DNA of 40,580 nucleotides. It comes from Clostridia bacterium (lineage in GTDB: Bacteria > Bacillota > Clostridia > UMGS1883). Positions 3,408 through 39,802 of the stretch are shown piece after piece (position 1 is the first letter of the stretch; each line of letters starts with the position of its first letter). The notes below the pieces were generated by a model, which worked only from the letters and a program-made list of their open reading frames with translations, searched no databases and was not told where the DNA came from. Made by a program: the position numbers and the translations under genes. The stretch is from NCBI GenBank assembly GCA_045591865.1, contig JAZNTQ010000112.1:1-40580 (forward strand). The letters are read 5' to 3'.

Positions 3408-3425
3408 TGTGTCGTTTTGTTAGCA
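3408..3425 (+). promoter_or_regulatory. oriented 18-bp motif (putative repressor-binding site)
   Basis: TGTGTCGTTTTGTTAGCA; related copies at 36099, 39090 and 39751. Confidence 0.55.
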
Positions 3426-5104: not shown

Positions 5105-5421
5105 CGGCGAAAGACTATTTGAAGCAGATAAAAAAGATTGATACTCAACTCAAAAACAAGGCTTTTGAGAAAAAGCAAATGGAAGAGTTGGGATTGTCGG
5201 CAGATGATATTATTGCAGAGGTCGAAGCCTTGAAGGGCAAGAGGGCGGAAATTATTCGCACGATAGAACGATTGCCCGAAGCAAAATATGATGTGCTTCA
5301 CAGGGTATATGTACAGGGACAGACACTTTATGATGTGGCGGCAGAGAGGGGAATGTGTTACAGCAACGCTACGACCATTCACGGAAACGCTTTGAGCGAT
5401 CTTGACGGCATCATAAATTGA
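5101..5421 (+). CDS. ArpU/RinA-like late transcriptional activator
   Basis: MTAKDYLKQI N-terminus, sigma4-like C-terminal HTH; last early gene before the late region. Confidence 0.7.
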   Translation: MTAKDYLKQIKKIDTQLKNKAFEKKQMEELGLSADDIIAEVEALKGKRAEIIRTIERLPEAKYDVLHRVYVQGQTLYDVAAERGMCYSNATTIHGNALSDLDGIIN

Positions 5422-5532
5422 TACAAATTGTATACGATTGTATATGATTGTATATGTTTATAAATCAAAACTATATAAGACAGCGGTATAATTACGATAG
5501 AAAGGTCTATTGTAATATGCCGCCGTTTTTTT
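5417..5532 (+). promoter_or_regulatory. late promoter region: 10-bp direct repeats, -10 box and overlapping terminator hairpin
   Basis: ATTGTATA(C/T)G x3 plus one degenerate copy at 5417-5456; TATAAT 5487-5492 with no good -35; hairpin ~5479-5526 followed by a T tract. Confidence 0.6.
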
Positions 5533-5551
5533 ATCAAGGGAGAGAAACGGA

Positions 5552-5845
5552 ATGGCAAAATACAACACATTTGCTTTGATCGATACCAAAACAAAAAAGG
5601 TGCTGATGATAACATCGAGCGCGAGAAAAAGCAAAAGGGCGTTTGTGAAAGGATACCGAATTGAGGTATGGAGTGCGAACGCTCTTTCCGAAGTTATTTA
5701 TAACAAAAATCTTGCGGACATAGATAAATATATCAACACCGAAAAAGAGTATATCGCAAGGAAACAGAAAAAAGCGGAAGAGATAAACAAACGGCGGAAA
5801 AAGAGATTGAGAGCGGACATTGAAATATACCAAAGAAAGAGTTGA
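5552..5845 (+). CDS. hypothetical basic protein
   Basis: RBS AAGGGGAG; 97-aa ORF. Confidence 0.6.
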   Translation: MAKYNTFALIDTKTKKVLMITSSARKSKRAFVKGYRIEVWSANALSEVIYNKNLADIDKYINTEKEYIARKQKKAEEINKRRKKRLRADIEIYQRKS

Positions 5846-26960: not shown

Positions 26961-27257
26961 GTGGACGGAATTGTTATTGCGTTGATTGGCGCGGGTGCTT
27001 CAATAATTGTCGAAATATTCGTGTTTCTCGGTGTTGTTCTGACAAACAAAAAATCAAACGAGAAGATCACAACGGATATTCAACACAAGTTAGAAACCGC
27101 GCAAGCGGTCACGGACACGAAGCTGGACGAGCTGACAAGAGAGGTACGGGAGCACAACGGCTTTGCAAGGCGAATGCCCGTTGTAGAAGAGCAAATCAAG
27201 GTTATCAACCACAGGATAAAAGACCTTGAACATCAAAAGAAAGCTGAAAGGGGGTAA
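26961..27257 (+). CDS. membrane protein of the lysis cassette
   Basis: N-terminal TM segment; LTREVREHNGFARRMPVVEEQIKV coiled coil. Confidence 0.65.
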   Translation: MDGIVIALIGAGASIIVEIFVFLGVVLTNKKSNEKITTDIQHKLETAQAVTDTKLDELTREVREHNGFARRMPVVEEQIKVINHRIKDLEHQKKAERG

Positions 27258-27261
27258 AAAA

Positions 27262-27525
27262 ATGAACACGGAAATCGTTGGAGTAGCGGCTATTACAATT
27301 ATCTGCTATCTTGTAGCCGAGGGTGTAAAGGCAACTCCACTTGCTAACAAGTGGATTCCCATTATATGCGGAATCTTCGGGGCTGTTCTCGGTGTTGTCG
27401 GTATGCTGATTATGCCCGACTTCCCCGCAAGCGATTATCTTTCCGCCGTTGCGGTTGGTATCGTTTCGGGACTTGCGGCTACGGGCGCAAATCAAGTTTA
27501 CAAGCAAATCACGAGCAAGGAATAA
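27262..27525 (+). CDS. holin
   Basis: three hydrophobic segments; KWIPIICG...GIVSGLAATGANQVYKQ. Confidence 0.85.
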   Translation: MNTEIVGVAAITIICYLVAEGVKATPLANKWIPIICGIFGAVLGVVGMLIMPDFPASDYLSAVAVGIVSGLAATGANQVYKQITSKE

Positions 27526-27536
27526 ACCCAAAACGG

Positions 27537-27564
27537 AAAACGGGGCGCGAAGCCCCGTTTTTTT
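27537..27564 (+). terminator. intrinsic terminator ending the late operon
   Basis: AAAACGGGGC-GCGAA-GCCCCGTTTTTTT. Confidence 0.9.
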
Positions 27565-27599
27565 GTTGCCTTAATGCCCTTTATACTCACTTTTGTACA

Positions 27600-27721
27600 T
27601 AATACACAAAAAAATATGTAAAACTTTGGTTATTTTGCGAATTGAATTATACGCAAAAAAGAGTATAATAATAGTGTAAACAAAAGATACCCCACGGGGT
27701 AAACAAGAAAGGGAAAAGAAA
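27600..27721 (+). promoter_or_regulatory. promoter-operator unit A (homologous to unit B at 36125)
   Basis: TTGAAT 27642, 16 nt spacer, TATAAT 27664; palindrome TACCCC-AC-GGGGTA 27688-27701. Confidence 0.75.
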
Positions 27722-28204
27722 ATGAAGTTGTACGGTGAAGAATTAAGAAAAAGCATACTTGAACACAAGCAGAGACTTATTGATGCTATGGATCGCCGCC
27801 AAGAACGAATAGACAACTGTGAAACCGATTATGATGATTGCTTTATATCAATACACGTTGAAGCGGACGGCATAAGAGCGTGTGATATGCAGTTGAGAAT
27901 TCTTGACGGTGACGGAATGATGGACTATGAAACAATCGTTGACGAAAACGGCAACGAGGTTAGAATACGCTTCTTCCAAAACAAGTGGGGCGGAACTTCT
28001 GTAGTCGGCAACGGTATATTTGCAAGCTCTATAAAAGCCCTTTTGAAAAAGACGGGTTGGACAGAAAAAACAATTCGCGTTCCCGCGTGGACGAAATTCT
28101 GCACAAGCGGCAGAGGTATGGCGGGCGTGATGTCGGGAAGTACAGAGATTGTTCGCTGGCATACAAATATGAAAACAGGCGAATATGTAGGCTACCCCGA
28201 TTAA
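27722..28204 (+). CDS. hypothetical protein, first gene of operon A
   Basis: 160-aa ORF with RBS behind promoter A. Confidence 0.75.
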   Translation: MKLYGEELRKSILEHKQRLIDAMDRRQERIDNCETDYDDCFISIHVEADGIRACDMQLRILDGDGMMDYETIVDENGNEVRIRFFQNKWGGTSVVGNGIFASSIKALLKKTGWTEKTIRVPAWTKFCTSGRGMAGVMSGSTEIVRWHTNMKTGEYVGYPD

Positions 28205-28215
28205 AGGAAAAGCAA

Positions 28216-28240
28216 GCCGAGGGCGGCGGCAAAACCGCCC
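28216..28240 (+). ncRNA. intergenic H-type pseudoknot, copy 1
   Basis: GCCG-A-GGGCGG-CGGC-AAAA-CCGCCC. Confidence 0.55.
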
Positions 28241-28264
28241 ACTATAAAGAAAGGATATAAGTAT

Positions 28265-28663
28265 ATGGAAATCGAAACAATCAAATTTGTAAGAGAGTAT
28301 GAGAATTACGAAAAGAAATATGATGTTATCTACCGTTCCCGCCGTTGCGTTACATACTCCGAAAACAAACTCCCCCAAAGCGTAAAAAACTTTATCTCCC
28401 AAGCGCAAGCAACAAAGCAATACGACTACACATCAACGCGAAAGAACAAAAACGAAATCATATACAAAAAACATATAAAGTTTCGCGTAACGGCAAAAAT
28501 CGCAGACAGCCCAGCAATGCCAACAAACACATTTTATGCGGAAAAAGAGTTTCTATTTCCCGTTGATAGCAACGTATTCGGCAGAGTAGCCGATGTTAGA
28601 AATTATTACAAAACCGCCTATAAAACAGACAATATAGAGATCATAAAGGCTGTGCAACTATAA
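28265..28663 (+). CDS. hypothetical protein
   Basis: 132-aa ORF, RBS GAAAGGA. Confidence 0.7.
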   Translation: MEIETIKFVREYENYEKKYDVIYRSRRCVTYSENKLPQSVKNFISQAQATKQYDYTSTRKNKNEIIYKKHIKFRVTAKIADSPAMPTNTFYAEKEFLFPVDSNVFGRVADVRNYYKTAYKTDNIEIIKAVQL

Positions 28664-28674
28664 AGAATAGCAAT

Positions 28675-28699
28675 ACCGTGCGGGGCGGTTAAACCCCGC
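28675..28699 (+). ncRNA. intergenic H-type pseudoknot, copy 2
   Basis: ACCG-T-GCGGGG-CGGT-TAAA-CCCCGC. Confidence 0.55.
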
Positions 28700-28715
28700 A
28701 GAAAGGAAAAGAAAT

Positions 28716-29366
28716 ATGAATAACGAATTGAAATCCCTATTACAGCAGATAGGAAATCTGCCCTTTGAAGAACGGGTATCGACTATAAACGAAGTCAAAG
28801 GCTTCTTGAAGCAAATCAGCCCGTTTACTGCCGAGCCTGTCGAATGTGTGCAATGGGTAAAGGCTGACGAGGTTATAGCAAACGATTATAACCCGAACAG
28901 CGTTGCCCCCCCCGAAATGGAATTGCTTCACACATCTATTCAAGAAGACGGCTACACACAGCCTATCGTTGTATGGCAACACGATGGCATATATGAGGTT
29001 GTAGACGGCTTCCACCGTAACCGAGTAGGCAAGGAGTACGCGGACATAAAAGAACGCATACACGGCTATTTGCCCGTTGTCGTTATCAATAATGACCGAG
29101 AGGACAAAGGCGATAGAATTGCTTCTACGATTCGCCACAACCGCGCAAGAGGTAAGCACAAGGTTGAAGCAATGAGCGATATTGTCATTGAGCTCAAGCG
29201 CAGAAATTGGAGTGATGCGAAGATAGGGCGCGAGCTGGGTATGGATGCGGACGAAGTGCTCCGCCTTACGCAGATAACAGGGCTTGCGGAAATGTTCGCG
29301 GACAAAGACTTCTCGCAAGCTTGGGAAGTGGATATGACCGAAGATATTGTTGATACGGAGTTTTAA
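28716..29366 (+). CDS. IbrB-like ParB/Srx-domain protein
   Basis: ANDYNPNSVAPPEMELL..SI.EDGYTQPIV, VVDGFHR, ASTIRHNRARGKH. Confidence 0.85.
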   Translation: MNNELKSLLQQIGNLPFEERVSTINEVKGFLKQISPFTAEPVECVQWVKADEVIANDYNPNSVAPPEMELLHTSIQEDGYTQPIVVWQHDGIYEVVDGFHRNRVGKEYADIKERIHGYLPVVVINNDREDKGDRIASTIRHNRARGKHKVEAMSDIVIELKRRNWSDAKIGRELGMDADEVLRLTQITGLAEMFADKDFSQAWEVDMTEDIVDTEF

Positions 29367-29368
29367 CA

Positions 29369-29782
29369 ATGGAGCGGATATTTCATCACTACAATTTGTG
29401 GGAAGATTACCACGCGGGAATGTATGACGAGAGCAAAGACGGGCGCGCGGAGCGAGTAGCAAAAGCCGCGTATATTTTAGGCACTCCCGATATTTGCCGC
29501 GAAGCAATGCAAAAGGTTGTTGCGGAATGGGAGAAAGCAACGGAATACAATTTTTCAAACGCAGAGATCAACCGCAAAGCGTGGCTGGGGCAAGCCGCCT
29601 GTTGTTGCTACGCGGGCATACACGAGGACGAAACCCGCGAAGCGTGGGGAATTATGACCGAAGCGCAGAGAATAGAAGCAAACGTAATAGCGGGGCAGAT
29701 AATCAAAGAGTGGATTAGTAAGTGGGAATTTGAGAACGATCCGCAAATATCAATGTTTAACGATTGGGGGAATATATTTTGA
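29369..29782 (+). CDS. hypothetical protein between the ibrB-like and ibrA-like genes
   Basis: HHYNLWEDYHAGMY...NRKAWLGQAAC; tightly coupled to both neighbours. Confidence 0.7.
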   Translation: MERIFHHYNLWEDYHAGMYDESKDGRAERVAKAAYILGTPDICREAMQKVVAEWEKATEYNFSNAEINRKAWLGQAACCCYAGIHEDETREAWGIMTEAQRIEANVIAGQIIKEWISKWEFENDPQISMFNDWGNIF

Positions 29783-31005
29783 AAACCTTGCTTGATATGA
29801 ATGTATACGAAGCGGCAAAACAGCGCATTGAGTGGACTTTTGATAACTTCGAAAGGGTTTATGTTTCATTCTCGGCGGGAAAGGATAGCACTTGTATGCT
29901 TCATATGGTTATGGATGAAGCAATCAAAAGAGGGCGCACCGTAGGCGTTCTATTGATTGACCTTGAGGGGCAATACAAAAAGACGATAGACCACGCTTTG
30001 CGTTGCCGAGAGCTATACAAAGAGCATTCGGAGTGGTATTGGGTGTGCTTGCCGATACACTTGAGAAACGCGGTGAGCGTTTATGAGCCGTTTTGGAAGT
30101 GCTGGGATAAAGAAGCGGAAAGCCAATGGATAAGACCGATGCCGAAAGATGTTATAAAGGATTTGGACTATTTCCCGTTCTTTGAAGACGGTATGGAGTT
30201 TGAAGAGTTTGTGCCGCTTTTCGGCGAATGGTATTCGCAGGGCAAGAGTTGTGCTTGCTGTGTCGGCATTAGATCAGACGAAAGCTTGAACAGATACAGA
30301 ACGATTGCCAATCGTTACAAAACCCCGAAAGACGGCAAAATGTGGACAACGAAAGTCACGGAACACACCTACAACGTTTATCCTATATACGATTGGGCTA
30401 CGGAAGACGATTGGATTTATCAAGGGAAAAACCCCGACAAGCCATACAACGAACTATATGATTATATGCACCTTGCGGGGCTTACCATTCATCAGATGCG
30501 AATATGCCAGCCCTACGGGGACGATCAGCGGCGCGGGCTGTGGCTTTTCCACTTGATAGAGCCCGAAACGTGGGCGCGTGTTGTCGCAAGGGTAAACGGG
30601 GCGAATAGCGGCGCGATGTACATAAACGAAAATGGCAATGTCAACGGCTACCGCAAAATCACGAAACCAGCGGGGCATACGTGGAAGTCATTTGCGACCT
30701 TGCTTATAAATTCAATGCCGCCCAAAACGCAGGAACATTACAAAAACAAGATTTACAAATTCGTTAAGTGGTGGGAAACAAGGGGCTACCCCGAGGGAAT
30801 ACCCGATGAAGCGGACATACACCTTGAAACAAAAAAGGATGTGCCGAGCTGGAGAAGAATATGCAAATCTCTGTTGCGTAACGATTATTGGTGCAAGGGA
30901 CTTTCTTTCACACAGCAGAAGTCAACGGCTTACGAAAAATATATAGCAATGATGAAAGCGAAGCGAGAGCAAGACGAAAATCAAATAACCTTATGGGAGA
31001 GTTGA
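29779..31005 (+). CDS. IbrA-like PAPS reductase-family / DUF3440 protein
   Basis: PP-loop VSFSAGKDS, VGIRSDESLNR, YPIYDW...D.W, MRICQPYGDDQR, PSWRRICK.LL.ND..CKGLSF; probable TTG start. Confidence 0.9.
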   Translation: MKTLLDMNVYEAAKQRIEWTFDNFERVYVSFSAGKDSTCMLHMVMDEAIKRGRTVGVLLIDLEGQYKKTIDHALRCRELYKEHSEWYWVCLPIHLRNAVSVYEPFWKCWDKEAESQWIRPMPKDVIKDLDYFPFFEDGMEFEEFVPLFGEWYSQGKSCACCVGIRSDESLNRYRTIANRYKTPKDGKMWTTKVTEHTYNVYPIYDWATEDDWIYQGKNPDKPYNELYDYMHLAGLTIHQMRICQPYGDDQRRGLWLFHLIEPETWARVVARVNGANSGAMYINENGNVNGYRKITKPAGHTWKSFATLLINSMPPKTQEHYKNKIYKFVKWWETRGYPEGIPDEADIHLETKKDVPSWRRICKSLLRNDYWCKGLSFTQQKSTAYEKYIAMMKAKREQDENQITLWES

Positions 31006-31009
31006 GACA

Positions 31010-31303
31010 ATGAGAAAAAGAGGAATGACACCCGAACAGGCTGAAAAGTTAAGGCTAAAGAGAGGACTTGACCGAGGGACAAAGCTCCGCATCGTAAGGG
31101 TGCGGAGCGGGCTGTCGCAAAGTGAGCTTTCGGCGGCTTCGGGTGTACCCGTCAAGACAATACAGCGATACGAGCAAGAGCCGAACAAGGTTGACGGCGC
31201 AAGGCTTGATAAGCTTTGCGGGTTGAGCGAAGCACTCGGCTGTAAAATCACCGATATTATAGAAGATAAAAAGCTGATTGAACGGTTTAACAAAGTTAAA
31301 TAA
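31010..31303 (+). CDS. XRE-family HTH regulator
   Basis: GLSQSELSAASGVPVKTIQRYEQ. Confidence 0.85.
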   Translation: MRKRGMTPEQAEKLRLKRGLDRGTKLRIVRVRSGLSQSELSAASGVPVKTIQRYEQEPNKVDGARLDKLCGLSEALGCKITDIIEDKKLIERFNKVK

Positions 31304-31357
31304 GCCGTTCTTTCGGCTGAAATAAAATGAAAGCGTTTACGTAGAAAGGAAAGAAAA

Positions 31358-32023
31358 ATGAAAAGTTACAAAGGATTTGACAAGGACTTAAAGTGCAGAG
31401 GTTTTCAGTACGAAATCGGAAAAGAGTATGAAGAAGCAAAGGCAGAACAATGCAAAAGCGGTTTTCACGCTTGCGAACATCCTCTTGATGTGCTGGGATA
31501 TTATCCACCGACAGATAATAACCGCTATTGTGAAGTAGAGCAAAGTGGAGAAATCTCAAAGGGCTTTGATGATACCAAAGTCGCAAGCACAAAAATAAAG
31601 ATCGGTGCGGAAATAGGGCTGAAAGGCTTAATCAAAGCGGCTTTTGAGTACACAAAAGAAAGATGCACCAACAGTCAGCAAGGGGAAGCCTTTTCAGCCT
31701 TGACGGGCGGTTACAGTTCAGCCTTGACGGGCGGTTACAGGTCAGCCTTGACGGGCGGTTACAGGTCAGCCTTGACGGGCGGTAACAGTTCAGCCTTGAC
31801 GGGCGGTTACAGGTCAGCCTTGACGGGCGGTGAATATTCCGTCGTCTATGGCGGTGAGGGTGCGAAAGTGAGAGCAAAGAAAGGCTCTGTGCTTGCCCTT
31901 CAATATTGGGTAGATTATGAGTTAAAGGGAATTAAATTCAAAGAGGTTGACGGCGTGAAGATAAAAGAAGATACATACTATAAGCTTTCTGCCGACGGCA
32001 GATTCATAGAAGTAAAGGAGTAA
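31358..32023 (+). CDS. phage protein with YKGFDKDLKCRGFQY N-terminal domain and beta-helix-type repeats
   Basis: GFHACEHPLDVLGYY; SALTGGxx x6; VDGVKIKEDTYY C-terminus. Confidence 0.8.
   Translation: MKSYKGFDKDLKCRGFQYEIGKEYEEAKAEQCKSGFHACEHPLDVLGYYPPTDNNRYCEVEQSGEISKGFDDTKVASTKIKIGAEIGLKGLIKAAFEYTKERCTNSQQGEAFSALTGGYSSALTGGYRSALTGGYRSALTGGNSSALTGGYRSALTGGEYSVVYGGEGAKVRAKKGSVLALQYWVDYELKGIKFKEVDGVKIKEDTYYKLSADGRFIEVKE
31694..31837 (+). repeat. 6 x 24-nt coding tandem repeat
   Basis: TCAGCCTTGACGGGCGGT+6 nt, head to tail with no spacers. Confidence 0.95.
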
Positions 32024-32025
32024 AA

Positions 32026-32253
32026 ATGGCAAGCAAAAACATTTATCAAGATTACGCGGAAGACTTAAAGAAATATCTCACAAGCAAACTTCCCGATGAG
32101 CTGTCTCACATCGTTGCGGAAATCTCGGAGTATATCGCCTGTAAAACGGCAAATTTGATTCACGATGTAATTCGTGAGAGGGACAACGAGTGGGAAGATT
32201 GGAACAATTTGATAAATAAGCAGTTAGAAAGGAAAAGGAGGAACAAAGAATGA
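32026..32253 (+). CDS. hypothetical protein
   Basis: RBS AAAGGAG. Confidence 0.6.
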   Translation: MASKNIYQDYAEDLKKYLTSKLPDELSHIVAEISEYIACKTANLIHDVIRERDNEWEDWNNLINKQLERKRRNKE

Positions 32254-32486
32254 GCGAATATTGCCATAATTGCGCGGCTCGCAACAGTTGCGGCGCGGCG
32301 GTTGCATACGGCTCAATATGTTGTATGGTAAACAGGATGAGAAGCGGGCAAACAAAGGGCGATTTTGTCGGGGCAAGCAAAGAAAAACCGAGGTATTGCG
32401 CTTATTGCGGTCAGCCGTTAAGGGAGATCGGAAACAAACGCTTTTGTAATAATGTGCAATGCCGAAACAGATATAACGATGTTTGA
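32250..32486 (+). CDS. Cys-rich, putative Zn-finger protein
   Basis: CHNC, CAYC, C..V.C motifs; RBS AGGAGG. Confidence 0.6.
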   Translation: MSEYCHNCAARNSCGAAVAYGSICCMVNRMRSGQTKGDFVGASKEKPRYCAYCGQPLREIGNKRFCNNVQCRNRYNDV

Positions 32487-32556
32487 AAGGCGGCGAGGAT
32501 GAAGAATACAGAGTGTTGCCCGATGATTTTTGTAGCTACGACGAAAGGAGAAAGCA

Positions 32557-32859
32557 ATGAATGAACGATATATAGCTGTAAGCCGCCTTTGTGAATGGCT
32601 GAAAAATCTTAAAAGCGGCTTTACGAAAGATGAACTTGTATTCCGTGATGAACTAATAGAGCACTTGCAAGGGAATAACGGCATTGCGAACGTGCTTCCC
32701 GTTGCCGATGTTGTCGAGGTGGTACGGTGCAAGGATTGCCAATTTCGGGGGAACGACCTTTGCGCGATGACTTATTATTCGGAATATGCGGGATGTTATG
32801 TCGATGAAACGGAAGATTGCGATTTTTGCAGTTACGGAGAAAGGGGAAACAATGGCTGA
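32557..32859 (+). CDS. hypothetical phage protein
   Basis: P.ADVVEVVRCKDC...DFCSYGER, a common phage motif. Confidence 0.7.
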   Translation: MNERYIAVSRLCEWLKNLKSGFTKDELVFRDELIEHLQGNNGIANVLPVADVVEVVRCKDCQFRGNDLCAMTYYSEYAGCYVDETEDCDFCSYGERGNNG

Positions 32860-33121
32860 TGTACATATTGGGGATATTCTCCGCAATGATTTTGTAAGTG
32901 AAGAAAGTCCGTTAAGGTATCAAGTAGTTATTCAGCATATAAAAATGCAACGGCAAAACACCGTTAAGTGCTTAACGAGGGAACTCCGTTATTCTTATTA
33001 TTTCAAAAATGATATAGGAAAGGGCATTGAAATAGTAGGGCATTTTGATGTGATGAAAACAATAAAAAGTGCTTTTGTAACGGCATTAGACGAAGCTTTG
33101 AAAGAGAGGGTAAACCGATGA
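32852..33121 (+). CDS. hypothetical protein
   Basis: RBS AAAGGGG before ATG 32852. Confidence 0.55.
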   Translation: MADVHIGDILRNDFVSEESPLRYQVVIQHIKMQRQNTVKCLTRELRYSYYFKNDIGKGIEIVGHFDVMKTIKSAFVTALDEALKERVNR

Positions 33122-33450
33122 GCAAAACGATCTTGTGTCAATGTAGTAATTGCGGATTCCATTTTGAAGTACGTCCTATGTTGGGAATTGCAGAGGGAAT
33201 GTATTATAACGGATATCGCGCCGTGGGTACTGCCTTTTATTGTGATAAATGCGTTAAGACTTGGAAAGAGCGCAACGGGAAAGAATTTGACGAGCAAGTC
33301 ATAAACCCGTCAAAGCAGTTTGCGAACTGGTGGAATAATCAAGTGCAAAGCGTTGTTAAGGACAAAAGCAAAATCAAGACATATCGCATTGTAAACGGCA
33401 TATATGAAGAAGTGCAAAAACGAGTTGACAAAACAGAATATTCAGAATAA
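33118..33450 (+). CDS. hypothetical protein with two CxxC motifs
   Basis: CSNC...CDKC; ATGA overlap. Confidence 0.6.
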   Translation: MSKTILCQCSNCGFHFEVRPMLGIAEGMYYNGYRAVGTAFYCDKCVKTWKERNGKEFDEQVINPSKQFANWWNNQVQSVVKDKSKIKTYRIVNGIYEEVQKRVDKTEYSE

Positions 33451-33456
33451 TATTAA

Positions 33457-33490
33457 CAAAAAAGAAGCGGGCATTTCGCCCGCTTTCTTG
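33457..33490. terminator. bidirectional intrinsic terminator
   Basis: A-tract-AAGCGGGC-ATTTC-GCCCGCTT-TCTT between convergent genes. Confidence 0.8.
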
Positions 33491-33492
33491 CT

Positions 33493-33750
33493 TCAAAATA
33501 CGTTGAAGTGTTCCACGCTTTCGACCGTAATTCCTCTTGACTTAATTTCGGCAAGTATTTTGTGATACTCCGCTTCATCTCTCGCAATTCTTGAAGCGTT
33601 GTGAATAACCATTGTATCGCAGTTTCTCACGGCTTCGAGATCACTTGTTACAAATAGGACTTTGCAACCCTTGTCGGCGGCATAAGCTCTGCAAAACATT
33701 TCTTGCATTGCTTGTCTATGCCCTCTAACGTAGATAATAGCTGTTTTCAT
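33493..33750 (-). CDS. minimal serine-recombinase-fold protein lacking the catalytic Ser
   Basis: AIIYVRG, DTMVIHNASRIARD and RGITVESV align with integrase AVAYARFS, DIVLVHKFNRFARN and MGITVVSV; RBS AAAAGGGGA. Confidence 0.65.
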   Translation of the reverse strand: MKTAIIYVRGHRQAMQEMFCRAYAADKGCKVLFVTSDLEAVRNCDTMVIHNASRIARDEAEYHKILAEIKSRGITVESVEHFNVF

Positions 33751-33754
33751 ATCT

Positions 33755-35356
33755 TCATCCCCTTTTGTTTAATGGCTGTTGATGTGTTTTCCGCTTCACC
33801 GTCTTTTTGATTGTAACGGGTGTTATAATGCGGTTTGCCCCCCTCTTTTTCATTTTATCCCCCCGTAGGGTAGAAAAATCTACCCGTAGGGTGATATCAA
33901 GGTTTTCGGGGTAAACCACAATTTGCTCAACAAATGTGTTGAAGATGATTTGCGCGTATTCTGCATCGGTCGCGCTGACGGTGCGGCGAAAGTTTTCTAA
34001 AAATATCTTTATTTCCTCAAACTCTATATTTTCGGTGCTTTCAAGATATCTGTTCTTTTCAATCTGTTCTTCAAGGTGCTTTTTCTCCGCTTTCAAAGCC
34101 CTGTTTTTATCTTCAAGTATGTTCATTTCAATACCGCCGTTGATATACAAATCCATTAGCTTTGCTTGCTGATCCTTGATTTTATTAAGCTGTTTACTCA
34201 ATTTTTCCGTTGATACTTGCGGTGTTTTTCTCTCTTTTTCGAGCTGTAGCAAAACTTGTTTGGCAATGCTATCAATGGCATTGTCTGTCAATACATTTTC
34301 TGTTATAGTATCTATTATAAGTTTTTCGTAATAATCTTTGTTTAGAGATGGATTGTTGCAACTGTTTTTGTGCTTGGTTTTTCCCGCGCATTTATAGTAT
34401 GCCGCTTCATCTCCTTTTTTGTTTTTCTTTTTCGCGCCGCTTCCGCAGTAGGTGAAGCCGCAAACCCCGCATTTTAATTTCCCTGTCATTATATACTTTC
34501 TTTTTCTCCAACGGGCTTTATTTTTGCTTCGCCGCTTCTCTTGAACGGCTTCCCACAAATCCTCGTCAATTATCGGATTTTTGATAATCCCGTCAAGCCG
34601 TATTGTTTCGGTGCTTGTGTGGTGATAAACGAAGTTACCGACATATTTCTCATTTTGCAAGAGATCGAACACGGTGCGCTCGCTGAATCGTCTGCCGTAT
34701 TGGTTGCGGTAGCCCTCTTCGTTTAAGCGTGCCACAATCTGAGTTTTCGGAACACCGTCCGCGTATTCTTGGAAAATACGCTTTATAATATGCGCGTTTT
34801 CATCGGGATAATAATACCCCTCTTCATCGACAGACAGCCCGAGCAATTTGCCGCCGCCTGTGTGCTTGCCTTTCAAGGCGTTCTCCAGCATTCCTTTTTT
34901 GACCTCAAGTGCAAGGTTTTCGGAGTAATATTGATCCATTGCTTCAATAAGGCTTTCCAATATGCGCCCCTCGGGACTATCGTCAATCGGCTGTGTTACG
35001 GAAACAACCGTAATGCCCATATCGCGCAAGCGTTTTTTATAAATCGCGCTATCGTACTTGTTACGGGCGAAACGGTTGAACTTGTGAACAAGCACAATAT
35101 CAATATCGACTTTGCCCGCGAAAATATCATCAATCATATTTTTGAAATCGTCCCGCATATCTGTTGTAGCTGATTGTGCTTCATCGGTGTATATCTCTAC
35201 AAGTTGGATATTTTCCCGTTCGCAGTATTCGCGGATCGCCCGCAACTGTGCATCAATACTTTCGTCCCTTTGATTGTTGGAGCTGAAACGAGCGTAGGCT
35301 ACAGCCCGCCTTATATGTTCCCCGTTTCGTTTTATCGTTCGTGTCATACTTGCCAT
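33755..35356 (-). CDS. int: large serine recombinase (integrase)
   Basis: YARFSS catalytic motif, RFAR, recombinase domain (LQNEKYVG, PII...W), Zn ribbon CGVCG...YYKC...C, coiled coil. Confidence 0.95.
   Translation of the reverse strand: MASMTRTIKRNGEHIRRAVAYARFSSNNQRDESIDAQLRAIREYCERENIQLVEIYTDEAQSATTDMRDDFKNMIDDIFAGKVDIDIVLVHKFNRFARNKYDSAIYKKRLRDMGITVVSVTQPIDDSPEGRILESLIEAMDQYYSENLALEVKKGMLENALKGKHTGGGKLLGLSVDEEGYYYPDENAHIIKRIFQEYADGVPKTQIVARLNEEGYRNQYGRRFSERTVFDLLQNEKYVGNFVYHHTSTETIRLDGIIKNPIIDEDLWEAVQEKRRSKNKARWRKRKYIMTGKLKCGVCGFTYCGSGAKKKNKKGDEAAYYKCAGKTKHKNSCNNPSLNKDYYEKLIIDTITENVLTDNAIDSIAKQVLLQLEKERKTPQVSTEKLSKQLNKIKDQQAKLMDLYINGGIEMNILEDKNRALKAEKKHLEEQIEKNRYLESTENIEFEEIKIFLENFRRTVSATDAEYAQIIFNTFVEQIVVYPENLDITLRVDFSTLRGDKMKKRGANRIITPVTIKKTVKRKTHQQPLNKRG
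33818..33863. other. candidate attP inside the integrase 3' end
   Basis: imperfect inverted repeat GGGTGTTATAATG / CATTTTATCCCCC (10/13) around a 20-nt spacer. Confidence 0.45.
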
Positions 35357-35363
35357 ATTGTCA

Positions 35364-35687
35364 TCACTCCATATCAAGATACATTTTCATTATTTCCTTG
35401 TAAACTCGTTCCCGTTCGGCTTTCGGTATTGCTTGATTGCAGAGAACGCTTCGTGCCCTTGCCAAAAGCTCAAAGCTCTCGTTCTCGGTCTCTACTCCCC
35501 AATAATCCATTGACACACCGAAGAAATAACATAAGGCTGTCAATTGTTGTAGGTGGGGAACACGCCTATTTGATTCATAGTTGCTGATAGTTGCCCTGCT
35601 CCAATTCATCCGAATTGCAAGCTCCTCTTGTGTCAGCCCTCGCCCCTTTCTCAAAGTTTTTAGTTTACTGCCTATACTTTCGTTCAC
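35364..35687 (-). CDS. XRE-family immunity repressor with no peptidase domain
   Basis: LKTLRKGRGLTQEELA...SRATISNYESNRRVP; upstream of int and divergent from the lytic genes. Confidence 0.85.
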   Translation of the reverse strand: MNESIGSKLKTLRKGRGLTQEELAIRMNWSRATISNYESNRRVPHLQQLTALCYFFGVSMDYWGVETENESFELLARARSVLCNQAIPKAERERVYKEIMKMYLDME

Positions 35688-35793
35688 TATTACACCCCCT
35701 CTCTTATTAGCATAATATCATACATTGTAAACGAAGTGAAACATTTTGCCCGCCAAAAGTCACAAAAAGAAAAACATTTTTGAAAATTTGTTA

Positions 35794-35822
35794 TTGCGCC
35801 CGAACAAATATTCTAATATAAT
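35794..35822 (+). promoter_or_regulatory. sigmaA promoter with a LexA/DinR-like SOS box in the spacer
   Basis: TTGCGC, 17 nt, TATAAT; CGAACAAATATTCT at 35801-35814. Confidence 0.6.
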
Positions 35823-35871
35823 GATTGAGAAAGTTGACAATTAACTGAAAATGATAACGAGGTGTAGCAAT

Positions 35872-36069
35872 TTGCGAAACAAACACGGCTTGACGATTAC
35901 TGAACGAATTACCAAAGATATAGAGCTTGCGGAAATGTCACGAAACGAAGAACACAGAAAATTGCTTGCACATATGGCAATAGCGGCGGCAGAGCTGGCT
36001 ATTGACTTCGGGCTTATTACATATAAAGAGTGGGGAGATTTAACGCGGAGAGCGTTCGCGGCTATGTAG
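35872..36069 (+). CDS. small helical protein, candidate antirepressor
   Basis: RBS GAGGTG with TTG start; single gene between the SOS-box promoter and a hairpin. Confidence 0.5.
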   Translation: MRNKHGLTITERITKDIELAEMSRNEEHRKLLAHMAIAAAELAIDFGLITYKEWGDLTRRAFAAM

Positions 36070-36090
36070 GGCGGGAAGCCCTTTGTTATT
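36068..36090 (+). terminator. putative terminator
   Basis: AGGGC-GGGAA-GCCCT-TTGTTATT. Confidence 0.5.
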
Positions 36091-36124
36091 ATGCTTTTTG
36101 TGTCGATTTGTTTACATTATGTAA

Positions 36125-36256
36125 AACATATACAAAAAAATGTGTAAAAGTTTGTATAAAATGCGAATTGAAATAATACCCAAAAATGGTATAATAATAC
36201 TGTCGATAAGAGATACCCCACGGGGTATAAACAAAAGAAAACAAGGAGAAAGAAAA
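36125..36256 (+). promoter_or_regulatory. promoter-operator unit B
   Basis: TTGAAA 36168, 16 nt spacer, TGnTATAAT 36190; palindrome ATACCCC-AC-GGGGTAT 36213-36228. Confidence 0.75.
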
Positions 36257-36427
36257 ATGAGAATTGCGGCAAAAGGAAAATATTTTATCGAAGCAACGGA
36301 CAAAAAAAGAAATCGTAAATTCTTCCCTTTCTACGATGGATTTGACACCAAAAAGGAAGCGGAAGAATTTTGCGAAAAAATGAACAAGGCAACACCAAAT
36401 TTTGCACATACGGTTGTTAAGCGATAA
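36257..36427 (+). CDS. 56-aa hypothetical protein, first gene of operon B
   Basis: RBS AAGGAG; FDTKKEAEEFCEKMN. Confidence 0.65.
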   Translation: MRIAAKGKYFIEATDKKRNRKFFPFYDGFDTKKEAEEFCEKMNKATPNFAHTVVKR

Positions 36428-36433
36428 CAAGCA

Positions 36434-36463
36434 TAGGCAACGGTGAGAGCCTACAATCTCCCC
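36434..36463 (+). ncRNA. intergenic H-type pseudoknot, copy 3
   Basis: TAGGC-AAC-GGTGAGA-GCCTA-CAA-TCTCCCC. Confidence 0.45.
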
Positions 36464-36483
36464 ACAGAAAGAAAGGAGCAGAT

Positions 36484-36684
36484 ATGGAATTAAAGGATAT
36501 GTGCAAATTCGCAAGACAGCACGTAAAAGAGGGGGGGGCAACGCAAAGCGATTTTGCCGCTATGGTAGGCACAAATCAAACGGAAATTTCGTTTATCGAG
36601 AGAGGTTTTATCCCCGAAAGTCAACAAAAGATTAACAAGATTATTCGTCTTTACAATGAATGCTTAAATAATCGAAACGGCTAA
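36484..36684 (+). CDS. small HTH protein
   Basis: TQSDFAAMVGTNQTEISFIERG. Confidence 0.8.
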   Translation: MELKDMCKFARQHVKEGGATQSDFAAMVGTNQTEISFIERGFIPESQQKINKIIRLYNECLNNRNG

Positions 36685-36716
36685 AACCGACTACAAGAAA
36701 TGGAAAGGCACTTGAA

Positions 36717-36998
36717 ATGGAATTGAAAGAGCATCATAAATTATTAGTCGTATCACTTGTGCTTGCTATGGTAATATGCGTTTGCGCCGCACAAGAATCC
36801 ACAATGGATAGAGTGCAATGGGAGCAAGAAGCCTACATCGTGGAAAAGGGCGATACCCTATGGGGAATAGGCGAAAAGCATTGTCCCGACAGCGTAGATA
36901 TCCGCGAGTGGATAGAAGAGGTAAGGAAAATAAACGAGCTTTCCGATAGCTGTATTTATGCTGGGGATAGATTGATTATTTTAGTGCCGCAAGATTGA
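36717..36998 (+). CDS. membrane-anchored LysM protein (YneA-like)
   Basis: N-terminal TM helix; YIVEKGDTLWGIG...IREWIEEVRKINEL...IYAGDRL. Confidence 0.8.
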   Translation: MELKEHHKLLVVSLVLAMVICVCAAQESTMDRVQWEQEAYIVEKGDTLWGIGEKHCPDSVDIREWIEEVRKINELSDSCIYAGDRLIILVPQD

Positions 36999-37051
36999 GT
37001 GCTGTCTAAAATGTGTCATTATGAAACTATTTATTGAAAGGTGGTGAAGAA

Positions 37052-37258
37052 ATGCGTAAGAATCTAAAATTATTGCGTGTCGAGAATGACTTGACTCAAG
37101 CAGATATGGCAACGCGGCTCGGTGTAACCCGAACAACCTACTGCAATATTGAGAACGGGAAAAGCAAAGGATCAATGACTTTTTGGCTGGCGGTAAAACG
37201 AGCGTTCCCCGAAATCGACATTGACGAAATGGCAAAAGTGAAAGGAGCAGAAAAATGA
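37052..37258 (+). CDS. Cro-like XRE HTH protein
   Basis: LKLLRVENDLTQADMATRLGVTRTTYCNIENG. Confidence 0.85.
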   Translation: MRKNLKLLRVENDLTQADMATRLGVTRTTYCNIENGKSKGSMTFWLAVKRAFPEIDIDEMAKVKGAEK

Positions 37259-37374
37259 GGAACAAGCGGAAAATCATTCTTAACAAGATCGAGAGCGGCA
37301 AAGTAAACAACGCAAGACTTGCGGAGTATTTCGCAAACAAATACAAAGAAAGGGGAATTGAAAATGCCTTTTAA
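37255..37374 (+). CDS. 39-aa peptide (absent from ORF track)
   Basis: RBS AAAGGAG, ATGA overlap; MRNKRKIILNKIESG... Confidence 0.5.
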   Translation: MRNKRKIILNKIESGKVNNARLAEYFANKYKERGIENAF

Positions 37375-37555
37375 GCCTTTAATAAGCGGCGAATCTACCG
37401 TTGAAATTTCGTCAAGCGAATACTTTAACTTGGCAAAGAAAGCCGAACGCATCGCGGCTGTAGAAAGATTCATCAACGCAAGCGAATTTGTAACAGTAAA
37501 AGATATTATGGCTTTGCTGGATATCAAGAAAGAAGAAAGGAAAACAGAGAAATGA
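37364..37555 (+). CDS. hypothetical protein
   Basis: RBS AAAGGGG. Confidence 0.55.
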   Translation: MPFKPLISGESTVEISSSEYFNLAKKAERIAAVERFINASEFVTVKDIMALLDIKKEERKTEK

Positions 37556-39088: not shown

Positions 39089-39124
39089 ATGTGTCGGTTT
39101 GTTAGCAATTTAGAGGAAATGTAA

Positions 39125-39802
39125 ATGAAAGTATTGGACTTATTTTGCGGGACAAAATCCATTGCAAAAGCATTTGAAGCGAGAGGGCACGAGGTTTTTA
39201 CGGTGGATTGGGACAAACAATTCAATCCGACTTTGAGCGCAGATATCGGAACGCTGACAGCACAAGACATTATCAATCTTTGCGGCGGTGTTCCCGATGT
39301 GATATGGGCAAGCCCCGACTGCACAACGTATTCCGTTGCGGCGATTTCAAAGCATAGACGAAAAGAAGCTAACGGCAATTTAACCCCGATAACCGATTAT
39401 GCGAAACGCTGTGATGAAATAAACAGCCATTTAATAAAGCTGATAAAAGAGCTTAACCCGCGCTATTGGTTTATTGAAAATCCACGGGCGGGAATGCGAA
39501 AAATGGATTTTATGAAAGACTTGCCACGGCACACGGTTACATATTGCAAGTACGGGGAAAGGCGGCAAAAGCCTACAGACATTTGGACGAATCACCCCGA
39601 GCCGAATTTTGCGTTGCCGTGCAAGAACGGCGATACTTGCCACGAAGCCGCACCGAGGGGAGCGAGAACGGGAACGCAAGCACTCAAAAATCGCATTGAA
39701 AAAGCAAGAATACCCGTATTACTCTGCGAACACATTGTTGATATATGTAGTGTGTCGCTTTGTTATCAAAAGAAAGAGGGTGAAGACGATTGTATGAAAT
39801 AA
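39125..39802 (+). CDS. compact C5-cytosine DNA methyltransferase
   Basis: VLDLFCGT (motif I), WASPDC (motif IV), FIENP (motif VI). Confidence 0.8.
   Translation: MKVLDLFCGTKSIAKAFEARGHEVFTVDWDKQFNPTLSADIGTLTAQDIINLCGGVPDVIWASPDCTTYSVAAISKHRRKEANGNLTPITDYAKRCDEINSHLIKLIKELNPRYWFIENPRAGMRKMDFMKDLPRHTVTYCKYGERRQKPTDIWTNHPEPNFALPCKNGDTCHEAAPRGARTGTQALKNRIEKARIPVLLCEHIVDICSVSLCYQKKEGEDDCMK

Follow-up and report, generated by a model that had tools for sequence, protein, structure and literature searches.

Several classes of small RNA element invite comparison with the junctions studied here. The gene 32 pseudoknot of the T-even phages heads a long unstructured A/U-rich leader, which is coated up to the ribosome binding site by the single-stranded DNA-binding protein (SSB), and it serves one gene. 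ToxI antitoxins form a tandem array of ~34–36 nt repeats beside a gene for a ToxN/AbiQ-type endoribonuclease. Recoding pseudoknots and exoribonuclease-resistant viral RNAs, found in eukaryotic viruses, are small H-type folds with an A-rich loop in the minor groove of the first stem (S1), lie a few nt 3' of a decoding site, and mechanically resist unwinding in the 5'-to-3' direction. Here we analyse a 40,580-nt contig of a Clostridia bacterium (GenBank assembly GCA_045591865.1, contig JAZNTQ010000112.1), referred to as a whole as the window, in which two gene junctions carry 25-nt elements just upstream of a Shine-Dalgarno (SD) sequence. Judged by sequence comparison with their relatives, these elements are genuine H-type pseudoknots, and they are members of a widespread family of minimal mRNA pseudoknots that has not been catalogued.

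Two other kinds of described element appear to stand closest. In Cluster K mycobacteriophages, the SAS and ESAS elements include or abut the SD, are repeated before many genes and are shared across phages, their function being unknown (PMC3203893). The ESAS is described as an imperfect inverted repeat of 17 bp, variable in its spacer, that precedes the 13-bp SAS consensus, and the relevant passages of that report mention no constant spacing from the stop codon upstream, unlike what we see in the pseudoknot family (PMC3203893). Going by this partial description, the two are alike in kind and SAS/ESAS would be the nearest analogue in kind, although host phylum and sequence differ and the ESAS as described forms no pseudoknot. 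The nearest analogue in proposed mechanism would be the 5' stabilisers of Bacillota, such as that of the Bacillus subtilis hbs mRNA, where a strong SD with its ribosome and/or a structure stops RNase J1 (PMC5737220). The stabilisers described so far are hairpins or ribosome binding events at host 5' untranslated regions (UTRs), and none is known to be a repeated intercistronic pseudoknot family, but the position of our elements directly upstream of the SD would fit a similar protection of the downstream coding sequence.

Results

Two pseudoknots in the window

Elements 1 and 2 follow the first two genes of an operon and have the following parts (S2, second stem; L1 and L3, first and third loops; a and b, 5' and 3' arms; ORF, open reading frame; aa, amino acids).

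28202-28204, + strand: TAA stop of a 160-aa ORF, 11 nt before S1 of pseudoknot 1
28216-28240, + strand: pseudoknot 1, GCCG-A-GGGCGG-CGGC-AAAA-CCGCCC (S1a 28216-19, L1 28220, S2a 28221-26, S1b 28227-30, L3 28231-34, S2b 28235-40)
28249-55 and 28265-67, + strand: SD GAAAGGA and ATG of a 132-aa ORF, the SD lying 8 nt after S2, a minority arrangement
28661-28663, + strand: TAA stop of the 132-aa ORF, 11 nt before S1 of pseudoknot 2
28675-28699, + strand: pseudoknot 2, ACCG-T-GCGGGG-CGGT-TAAA-CCCCGC (S1a 28675-78, L1 28679, S2a 28680-85, S1b 28686-89, L3 28690-93, S2b 28694-99)
28700, 28701-07 and 28716-18, + strand: an A, SD GAAAGGA and ATG of a ParB/IbrB-like 216-aa ORF, the SD lying 1 nt after S2

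A sequence-only reading of the window had proposed three H-type pseudoknots, each preceded by a stop codon and AGCA and followed by a GAAAGGA-type SD. All three sequences and their flanks were exactly as it gave them. Elements 1 and 2 do share one geometry (S1 of 4 bp, L1 of 1 nt, S2 of 6 bp, no second loop (L2), L3 of 4 nt) and differ by compensatory changes in both stems, one in S1, where the outer pair changes from G-C to A-T, and two in S2. A seventh S2 pair is possible in pseudoknot 2 (T28679-A28700).

Under a strict definition of the fold (S1 of 4 Watson-Crick pairs, L1 of 1–2 nt, S2 of 6–7 perfect pairs, L3 of 3–5 nt), the + strand of the window holds three pseudoknots, starting at 28216, 28675 and 37320, compared with a mean of 0.28 (sd 0.52, maximum 2) in 60 dinucleotide shuffles. 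Minimum free energy (MFE) folding of the three element regions, with a tool that cannot fold pseudoknots, returned the S2 hairpins only, with weak z-scores (-0.47, -1.68 and +0.05), a result that bears on the knots in neither direction. We also searched with a covariance model, R1, built from 27 gapless copies of the family and encoding only S2. With filters off, it matched the window at 28667-28711 (56.2 bits, E 9.6e-13), element 2 there being a canonical member, and at 28208-28259 (26.3 bits, E 5.8e-5), the latter match, at element 1, including a 7-nt insertion before the SD; the next-best match in the window reached 13.4 bits (E 0.13). The rest of the 1.46 Mb assembly gave zero further matches. 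The elements had been described as confined to the two operons of the window that are headed by twin promoters, and both matches in the window lie in the first of these.

The strict fold at 37320-37344 (+ strand; TGCG-GA-GTATTT-CGCA-AAC-AAATAC) is A+T-rich and is contained in the 3' end of a 39-aa ORF, just before the SD AAAGAAAGGGG. It is unmatched by the family covariance model and is probably a chance pseudoknot.

Both stems are supported in relatives

Relatives were sought with one stem fixed and the stem under test left free, and hundreds were recovered from viral contigs, metagenome contigs and contigs of Clostridia metagenome-assembled genomes (MAGs). A pattern holding the S2 of element 2 and the SD, with loop and upstream sequence free (GCGGGG-N5-10-CCCCGC-AGAAAGG), gave 64 matches at 63 loci in viral contigs. 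When the window and these 63 loci were scanned for hairpins blind to any further structure, 95 unique hairpins were found, and a perfect 4-bp S1 at L1=1 and L2=0 was present in 20 of the 43 hairpins that abut an SD, as against 0–3 at each other offset and 1 of the 52 other hairpins. Metagenome contigs searched with another S2 design, GCCGGG, gave at least 129 matches, at least 111 of them unique. Among the matches listed, 38 have raw 8-nt loops, and S1 is perfect at L1=1 in 13 of them, at L1=2 in 4, at L1=3 in 1 and at offsets 0 and 4–9 in none; once S2 is extended inward, S1 is present in 42 of 60 eight-nucleotide loops, again among the matches listed. The GCGGGG pattern, applied to one genome per species, returned 95 unique matches, mostly ordinary short-loop hairpins, with S1 in 8 of the 14 that have an 8-nt loop; the titles shown for these matches are of uncultured Clostridia, Eubacteriales and Oscillospiraceae MAGs.

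The S1 types recovered are GCCG/CGGC, ACCG/CGGT, GCCC/GGGC, CCCG/CGGG, TCCG/CGGA and CGCC/GGCG, and a second subfamily (type B), with S1 of the form NGGN/NCCN and L1 of CC, adds AGGC/GCCT, CGGC/GCCG, TGGC/GCCA, CGGT/ACCG and CGGG/CCCG. In this second subfamily S2 is the 7-bp GCCGGGA/T and S1 covaries at outer and inner pairs (L366, with three copies, L335, L372, L374, L313 and L350).

Covariation was measured in alignments made by a model that knew S2 only. The outer S1 pair was GC in 16 copies, AU in 13, GU in 2 and other in 2, and in an independent metagenome set the figures were 28, 13, 5 and 3. In both alignments the observed value was reached by 0 of 500 shuffles on any of five measures, a control that overstates significance because many copies are related, and pairing collapsed when the S1 partner was slid by 1–3 columns.

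In the reciprocal search S1 and the SD were constant and S2 could vary (GCCG-N7-8-CGGC-N10-11-AGAAAGG; viral contigs, at least 119 matches). Among the matches listed, S2 complementarity in the 6-bp geometry was bimodal, with 11 of 56 pairing at every position (6/6) and 42 of the 45 remaining ones having 0–3 pairs, and in the 7-bp geometry S2 was perfect in 3 of 16. A set of 55 unique canonical copies includes 15 or more distinct S2 pairs. The two crossing helices are therefore each supported independently of the other, S1 with S2 fixed and S2 with S1 fixed, and both covary. Instead of supporting S2 alone with no covariation in S1, as would be expected of a plain hairpin, the relatives favour an S1 that is enriched at one offset and covaries in independent sets, and elements 1 and 2 are supported as H-type pseudoknots, each placed at a gene junction shortly before an SD. 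By itself S1 has little stability (-6.1 and -2.6 kcal/mol in elements 1 and 2, where S2 has -11.5 and -11.3), and selection on S1 is therefore sensible only together with S2, that is, as a pseudoknot.

Anatomy and position of the family

Members of the family have a G+C-rich S1 of 4 bp, an L1 of 1–2 nt, a G+C-rich S2 of 6–7 bp, no L2 and an A-rich L3 of ~4 nt, the commonest geometries among 133 unique copies being L1=1/S2=6/L3=4 (49 copies) and L1=1/S2=7/L3=4 (28 copies). In a pseudoknot with coaxial stems, a short L1 can span an S2 of 6–7 bp, and L3 needs at least 3 nt to span S1. The loop lengths of the family are sterically compatible with coaxial stems, except in a few type-B copies in which L3 is just 1–2 nt long. 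The loops contain no invariant single-stranded nucleotide, L1 being A, G, T or C and L3 merely A-rich, which speaks for a structural role and against a specific pocket for a ligand or protein.

The position of the knot, which lies on the sense strand, was measured with the knot fixed and both flanks free, in two sets of 76 and 52 unique usable copies (128 altogether). The distance from the upstream stop codon to S1 is 5–12 nt in 60/76 and 40/52 copies (100/128), drops steeply below 5 nt and is at most 18 nt in nearly all. On the other side, an SD with a start codon has its core 0–2 nt after S2, mostly exactly 1 nt, in 39/76 and 35/52 copies (74/128), and farther away, at 3–13 nt, in 17/76 and 6/52. 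In the SD-anchored set (133 unique copies), the intercistronic gap has a median of 49.5 nt (range 39–56) and the spacer before S1 is A/C-rich. The AGCA noted after the stop codons of the window is not conserved across the family and drops out as a part of the element.

The register of the SD after S2 varies (AGAAAGG, AAAGGAG, AGAAGGAGG). The host SD consensus, taken from start-codon contexts, is AAAGGAGG, and the knot-adjacent A-GAAAGG matches its 5' part; a short pattern for the 3' end of host 16S rRNA and Rfam RF00177 matched nothing in 13 and 64 related MAGs. The frame relation between the ORFs on the two sides of the knot is uniform (33/36/33 of 102).

At viral loci L017, L032, L034, L041, L050, L057, L059, L065 and L067-L069, the same AGAAAGG SD is abutted by a hairpin-only class, GCGGGGG-TGAAAGT-CCCCCGC, which follows A-rich sequence and lacks S1. 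An SD-abutting stem may be the more general design, of which the pseudoknot is one version.

Gene context and distribution

The knots stand between genes that have little in common. Clustering of 111 downstream proteins at E 1e-5 gave 102 clusters, the ORFs behind the knots are short (median 73.5 aa), and upstream genes are as varied as downstream ones. A locus carries at most 3 copies, a few hundred bases apart. Identical sequences of 25–31 nt recur with different flanks, ACCG-G-GCGGGG-CGGT-ATAA-CCCCGC being found in at least 10 contexts, and element 1 has a near-identical copy in a related genome of the same family (L009, 1502-1526), with which it shares 43 nt at 86% identity between unrelated flanks. 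The earlier description of a cassette-boundary RNA element fits this picture, as the same knot is found between unrelated small genes in many phages. Among 87 genomes of the order R1 matched 4, and a sample of 150 others from the phylum yielded no match. The family is, as far as its predicted copies tell, borne by phages and prophages of Clostridia-type hosts and is not a host element.

The third element

The third proposed pseudoknot lies in the second operon.

36425-27, + strand: upstream stop codon
36434-36463, + strand: element 3, TAGGC-AAC-GGTGAGA-GCCTA-CAA-TCTCCCC, with one T.C mismatch
36470-78, + strand: SD

Here the initial proposal did not survive. Element 3 is found only with a relaxed definition (S1 of 4–5 bp, L1 of 1–3 nt, S2 with one mismatch), and such folds are as frequent in shuffled sequence (9.65 +/- 2.6) as in the window (12 on the + strand, 15 on the - strand). 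R1 does not match it even at E 10, and it is without comparative support. The helix-turn-helix (HTH) ORF behind it has two viral relatives, of which one, with 46% identity, was read; the homologous junction of this relative has no such fold, and one junction earlier the same relative carries a canonical knot of the family. A search for viral relatives of the 56-aa ORF found none. Element 3 may be a diverged copy, but it is indistinguishable from chance.

Comparison with described elements

Rfam 15 gave 0 matches at the gathering score over the whole window, and 0 at E up to 10 over the 541 bases of 28190-28730. No description of the knot family was found in the literature, where a listing under another name in supplementary motif tables is possible, nor is there one in the accessible parts of PMC5737381 and bioRxiv 10.64898/2026.09.22.753630. 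The family is thus apparently undescribed, small cis-acting mRNA pseudoknots as such being already known.

The likeness to the T-even gene 32 operator drawn in the sequence-only reading extends to a compact H-type knot in a phage mRNA leader with a first loop of one nucleotide across a second stem of 6–7 bp. It does not extend to the operator itself. The SD follows S2 by 8 nt in element 1 and 1 nt in element 2, which leaves no unstructured leader, and there is no SSB gene downstream; here the SD lies within 0–8 nt, with a family mode of 1 nt, the downstream genes do not encode SSBs and many unrelated genes are served. The suggested ToxI-like antitoxin or decoy fares no better, since the elements form no tandem array and have no ToxN-like gene. 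Tandem Repeats Finder, run on 27000-37500, found no array at or near elements 1 and 2 (arrays only at 27384-27402 and 31694-31855), and the ten ORFs scanned gave no PADLOC or Pfam match to a ToxN/AbiQ-type gene.

Three further candidates were tried and rejected. A riboswitch would be expected to match Rfam and to precede genes of one pathway, and here there is no Rfam match and the downstream genes are unrelated small ORFs. A recoding stimulator is not supported, as there is no conserved extension in frame 0 or -1 (33/36/33 of 102); the family also differs from the known recoding pseudoknots in its bacterial hosts, the slippery site not having been looked for. As for an intrinsic terminator, S2 is followed by ACTATAAAG in one element and AGAAAGGAA in the other, with no U tract, and neither element appeared in a terminator scan.

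Discussion

The anatomy of the family favours a roadblock or insulator over a specific operator, and it excludes a decoy role for practical purposes. Our preferred reading, to which we give a probability of roughly 0.45, is that the knot may be a constitutive intercistronic insulator and stabiliser, a structural module and not a sensor. It would sit just beyond the unwinding reach of the ribosome that terminates on the upstream gene and beside the site covered by the initiating 30S subunit. The lower limit of ~5 nt after the stop codon would be expected if the knot must stay outside the mRNA unwound by the terminating ribosome. Placed in this way, the knot would stay folded while both neighbours are translated and would leave almost no naked single-stranded RNA at the junction. 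It could then insulate in two ways, blocking the entry of endonucleases and the progress of exonucleases (RNase Y, RNase J1-type and 3'-exonucleases) into the neighbouring cistrons, and preventing arbitrary upstream sequence from pairing with the SD. The expression of a small gene cassette would then not depend on its surroundings, which would suit cassettes that are freely exchanged.

A bolder version holds that the knot is a bacterial-virus counterpart of the exoribonuclease-resistant RNAs, punctuating cassettes into stable, separately translated mini-mRNAs. Cleavage in the A/C-rich spacer after the stop codon would leave a knot of ~25 nt at the new 5' end, where it would stall RNase J1 in its 5'-to-3' course, and 3' exonucleases arriving from the opposite direction would be stalled as well. 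In this manner a single early transcript would become a set of individually stable mini-mRNAs, a form of punctuation that might be general in Clostridia phages. This version is speculative, and we think it more probably wrong than right.

A number of observations weigh against the insulator reading or against the comparative evidence beneath it. Adjacency to the SD is modal and not universal: element 1 itself has an 8-nt spacer, and no SD with a start codon lies within ~24 nt in 20/76 and 11/52 copies (3 and 2 of these having an SD-like core; 26/128 without it). Six near-identical viral contigs have a terminator-like hairpin after the knot instead of an SD. Four viral relatives of the 160-aa ORF are known and two of the homologous junctions were read, both of them free of the knot; one relative, with 80% identity to the 160-aa gene (L002), has no knot at that junction, and the other (L003) has a terminator-like hairpin there, so that the element appears to be dispensable at a given junction. 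Viral relatives of the 132-aa ORF were searched for and none was found. The relatedness of many copies bears on the shuffle controls, as said above, and the two inner pairs of S1 are nearly constant in subfamily A. Near-perfect copies, compared for signs of strand-specific selection on the RNA, show 9 G.U, 16 A.C and 26 other mismatches, with no excess of G.U, in a set contaminated by register artefacts, and so provide no independent proof of such selection. The short L3 of some type-B copies is sterically hard to fit. Finally, the argument from ribosome reach has its basis in the helicase position of the terminating ribosome, which is a matter of general knowledge.

In the six contigs with the terminator-like hairpin (L436, L446, L448, L460, L461 and L489), this second hairpin reads AGCC-TTYC-GGGCT and is followed by an A/T-rich stretch, the knot closing the operon.

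Two alternatives overlap with the insulator reading, each assigning the knot to one of its neighbours. On the downstream side, the knot could be directed at the ribosome, with S2 stacking on the SD/anti-SD helix or docking on the 30S platform and so raising initiation, or with the knot removing a standby site and capping initiation at a low level. The prevalence of an SD core at 0–2 nt from S2 (74/128 copies, mostly exactly 1 nt), the fit of A-GAAAGG to the 5' part of the host consensus, and the hairpin-only class abutting the same SD are what this reading would predict. It accounts poorly for the copies whose SD is 3–13 nt off (17/76 and 6/52) or that have none with a start (20/76 and 11/52), for the 8-nt spacer of element 1 and for the varying register of the SD after S2; moreover, none of the 64 MAGs of the family holds a 16S gene, so the host 16S 3' end is unread. 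We consider this reading improbable, though the likeliest of the rivals. On the upstream side, the knot could serve the preceding gene, protecting its 3' end after the stop codon against 3'-to-5' exonucleases or acting on the terminating ribosome, and it would then travel with the upstream cassette. Distance to the stop codon is indeed the most constant feature of the family (5–12 nt in 100/128 copies), and copies that lack a downstream SD or precede a terminator-like hairpin still follow a stop. However, a plain G+C hairpin would be enough against 3' exonucleases, a start site lies within ~24 nt in 97/128 copies, upstream genes are varied, and the short distance may merely reflect genome economy, which makes this reading seem somewhat less likely still.

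The remaining alternatives give the element a specific partner or deny the fold its role. A translational operator, at which a phage or host RNA-binding protein would repress or activate the genes behind the knot in the manner of T4 gp32, RegA or ribosomal protein S15, would be rightly placed beside the SD, and the recurrence of an unchanged 25–31 nt sequence in at least 10 contexts suggests conservation beyond structure; yet no single-stranded position is invariant, S1 and S2 vary widely, the downstream genes share nothing, and there is no candidate binder, the genes neighbouring the knots in the window being different from those in other phages. We hold it to be unlikely and rank it behind both readings above. 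If the conserved block of 25–45 bp acted at the level of DNA, shuffling cassettes as a boundary sequence or hot spot of recombination, and the RNA fold were secondary, this would explain why a genome of the same family has only the 43-nt element (86% identity) in common with the window, between unrelated flanks, and why identical elements lie between unrelated genes. Recombination alone leaves unexplained the covarying crossing stems in fixed orientation to stop and SD, and this reading is very improbable. Slimmer still is the chance of a small ligand-sensing pseudoknot (riboswitch) or a stimulator of frameshifting or readthrough: size and SD-adjacent position recall the small pseudoknot riboswitches, and a spacing of 5–12 nt after the stop recalls recoding stimulators, going by the customary spacing rule, but nothing in Rfam matches at E 10, the downstream genes are unrelated ORFans and the frames are uniform (33/36/33). 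Least credible are plain hairpins with chance S1 complementarity and a ToxI-like antitoxin mimic. MFE folding, which gives S2 only and weak z-scores, agrees with plain hairpins, and that reading fits element 3; for elements 1 and 2 it is contradicted by an S1 that is enriched at one offset and covaries in independent sets, while the antitoxin mimic lacks a tandem array and has no ToxN-like or other PADLOC toxin adjacent to it.

The phage contig

The window is the entire 40.6-kb contig (C112) of a 1.46-Mb assembly in 114 contigs. It is a temperate siphophage-like element, with almost all of its genes on the + strand and the following features around the operons in question.

27642-27669 and 36168-36195, + strand operons: near-identical twin sigma-70-type promoters, heading two operons
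27688-27701 and 36214-36227, after each twin promoter: 5'-UTR hairpin TACCCCACGGGGTA, the same in both, a few bases before the first SD
28716-29366, + strand: ParB/IbrB-like gene, 216 aa
29764-31005, + strand: PAPS-reductase/DUF3440 (DndC-like) gene
33755-35377, - strand: serine integrase gene
35364-35687, - strand: CI-like HTH repressor gene

The twin promoters are embedded in a true repeat (27591-27706 and 36117-36234, 80% identity). The promoter block also matches prophage regions of two other genomes in the genus (L007, L016 and L008). The first operon runs from the 160-aa ORF (27722-28204) through the 132-aa ORF, whose product has a weak DUF4364 match, to the ParB/IbrB-like and PAPS-reductase/DndC-like genes. 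Its junctions are of two kinds. At some the genes overlap or lie no more than 5 nt from each other, suggesting that their translation is coupled, and the others are gaps of 50–70 nt with a knot or hairpin in them. A search for public sequencing runs listed none for the locus. A blastn search against deposited phages gave only distant ParB/PAPS-reductase matches, in phages of unrelated hosts (Microcystis, Chlorobiaceae and Pseudomonas). Directly behind pseudoknot 2, the cassette at 28716-31005 (+ strand) consists of the ParB/IbrB-like gene, a 137-aa ORF and the PAPS-reductase/DUF3440 (DndC-like) gene.

Three other features of the contig were observed. The 14-nt motif TGTGTCGNTTTGTT has 4 copies, all on the + strand (3408-3421, 36099-36112, 39090-39103 and 39751-39764), for a chance expectation of 0.13; those at 3408 and 39090 lie in short gaps directly before an SD and are followed by TAGCAA, and that at 36099 precedes the second twin promoter. 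The related viral locus L002 has a similar string at ~1090. The motif may be an operator or a promoter element specific to the phage. Within a 221-aa ORF (31358-32023), a 24-nt unit, TCAGCCTTGACGGGCGGTTACAGG, recurs 5.8 times with 95% identity at 31694-31855 (+ strand), and this array could be a set of replication-origin iterons, the ORF then being a replication gene, or could encode a protein repeat of 8 residues. The long intergenic regions 1758-1929 and 5419-5554 (+ strand) contain TTGACA/TATAAT boxes that resemble promoters, and behind these come long hairpins of great stability, with gap MFEs of -58.9 and -38.6 kcal/mol.

Concluding remarks

Cis-acting pseudoknots in phage mRNA have been known as single cases, of which gene 32 is one, and here they appear as a predicted family with hundreds of copies in phage contigs from gut, rumen and fermenters. 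The family combines a textbook-minimal geometry with clear covariation of its two stems, its address between stop codon and SD is precise, and it is absent from Rfam 15. In uncultivated phage contigs, a knot of this family is a useful annotation mark, flagging a true stop/start junction and the sense strand. If the knot is an insulator or stabiliser, it would offer a natural intercistronic part of 25 nt for synthetic biology in Bacillota, and it would explain how temperate Clostridia phages keep their arrays of exchanged small ORFans expressed whatever their neighbours.

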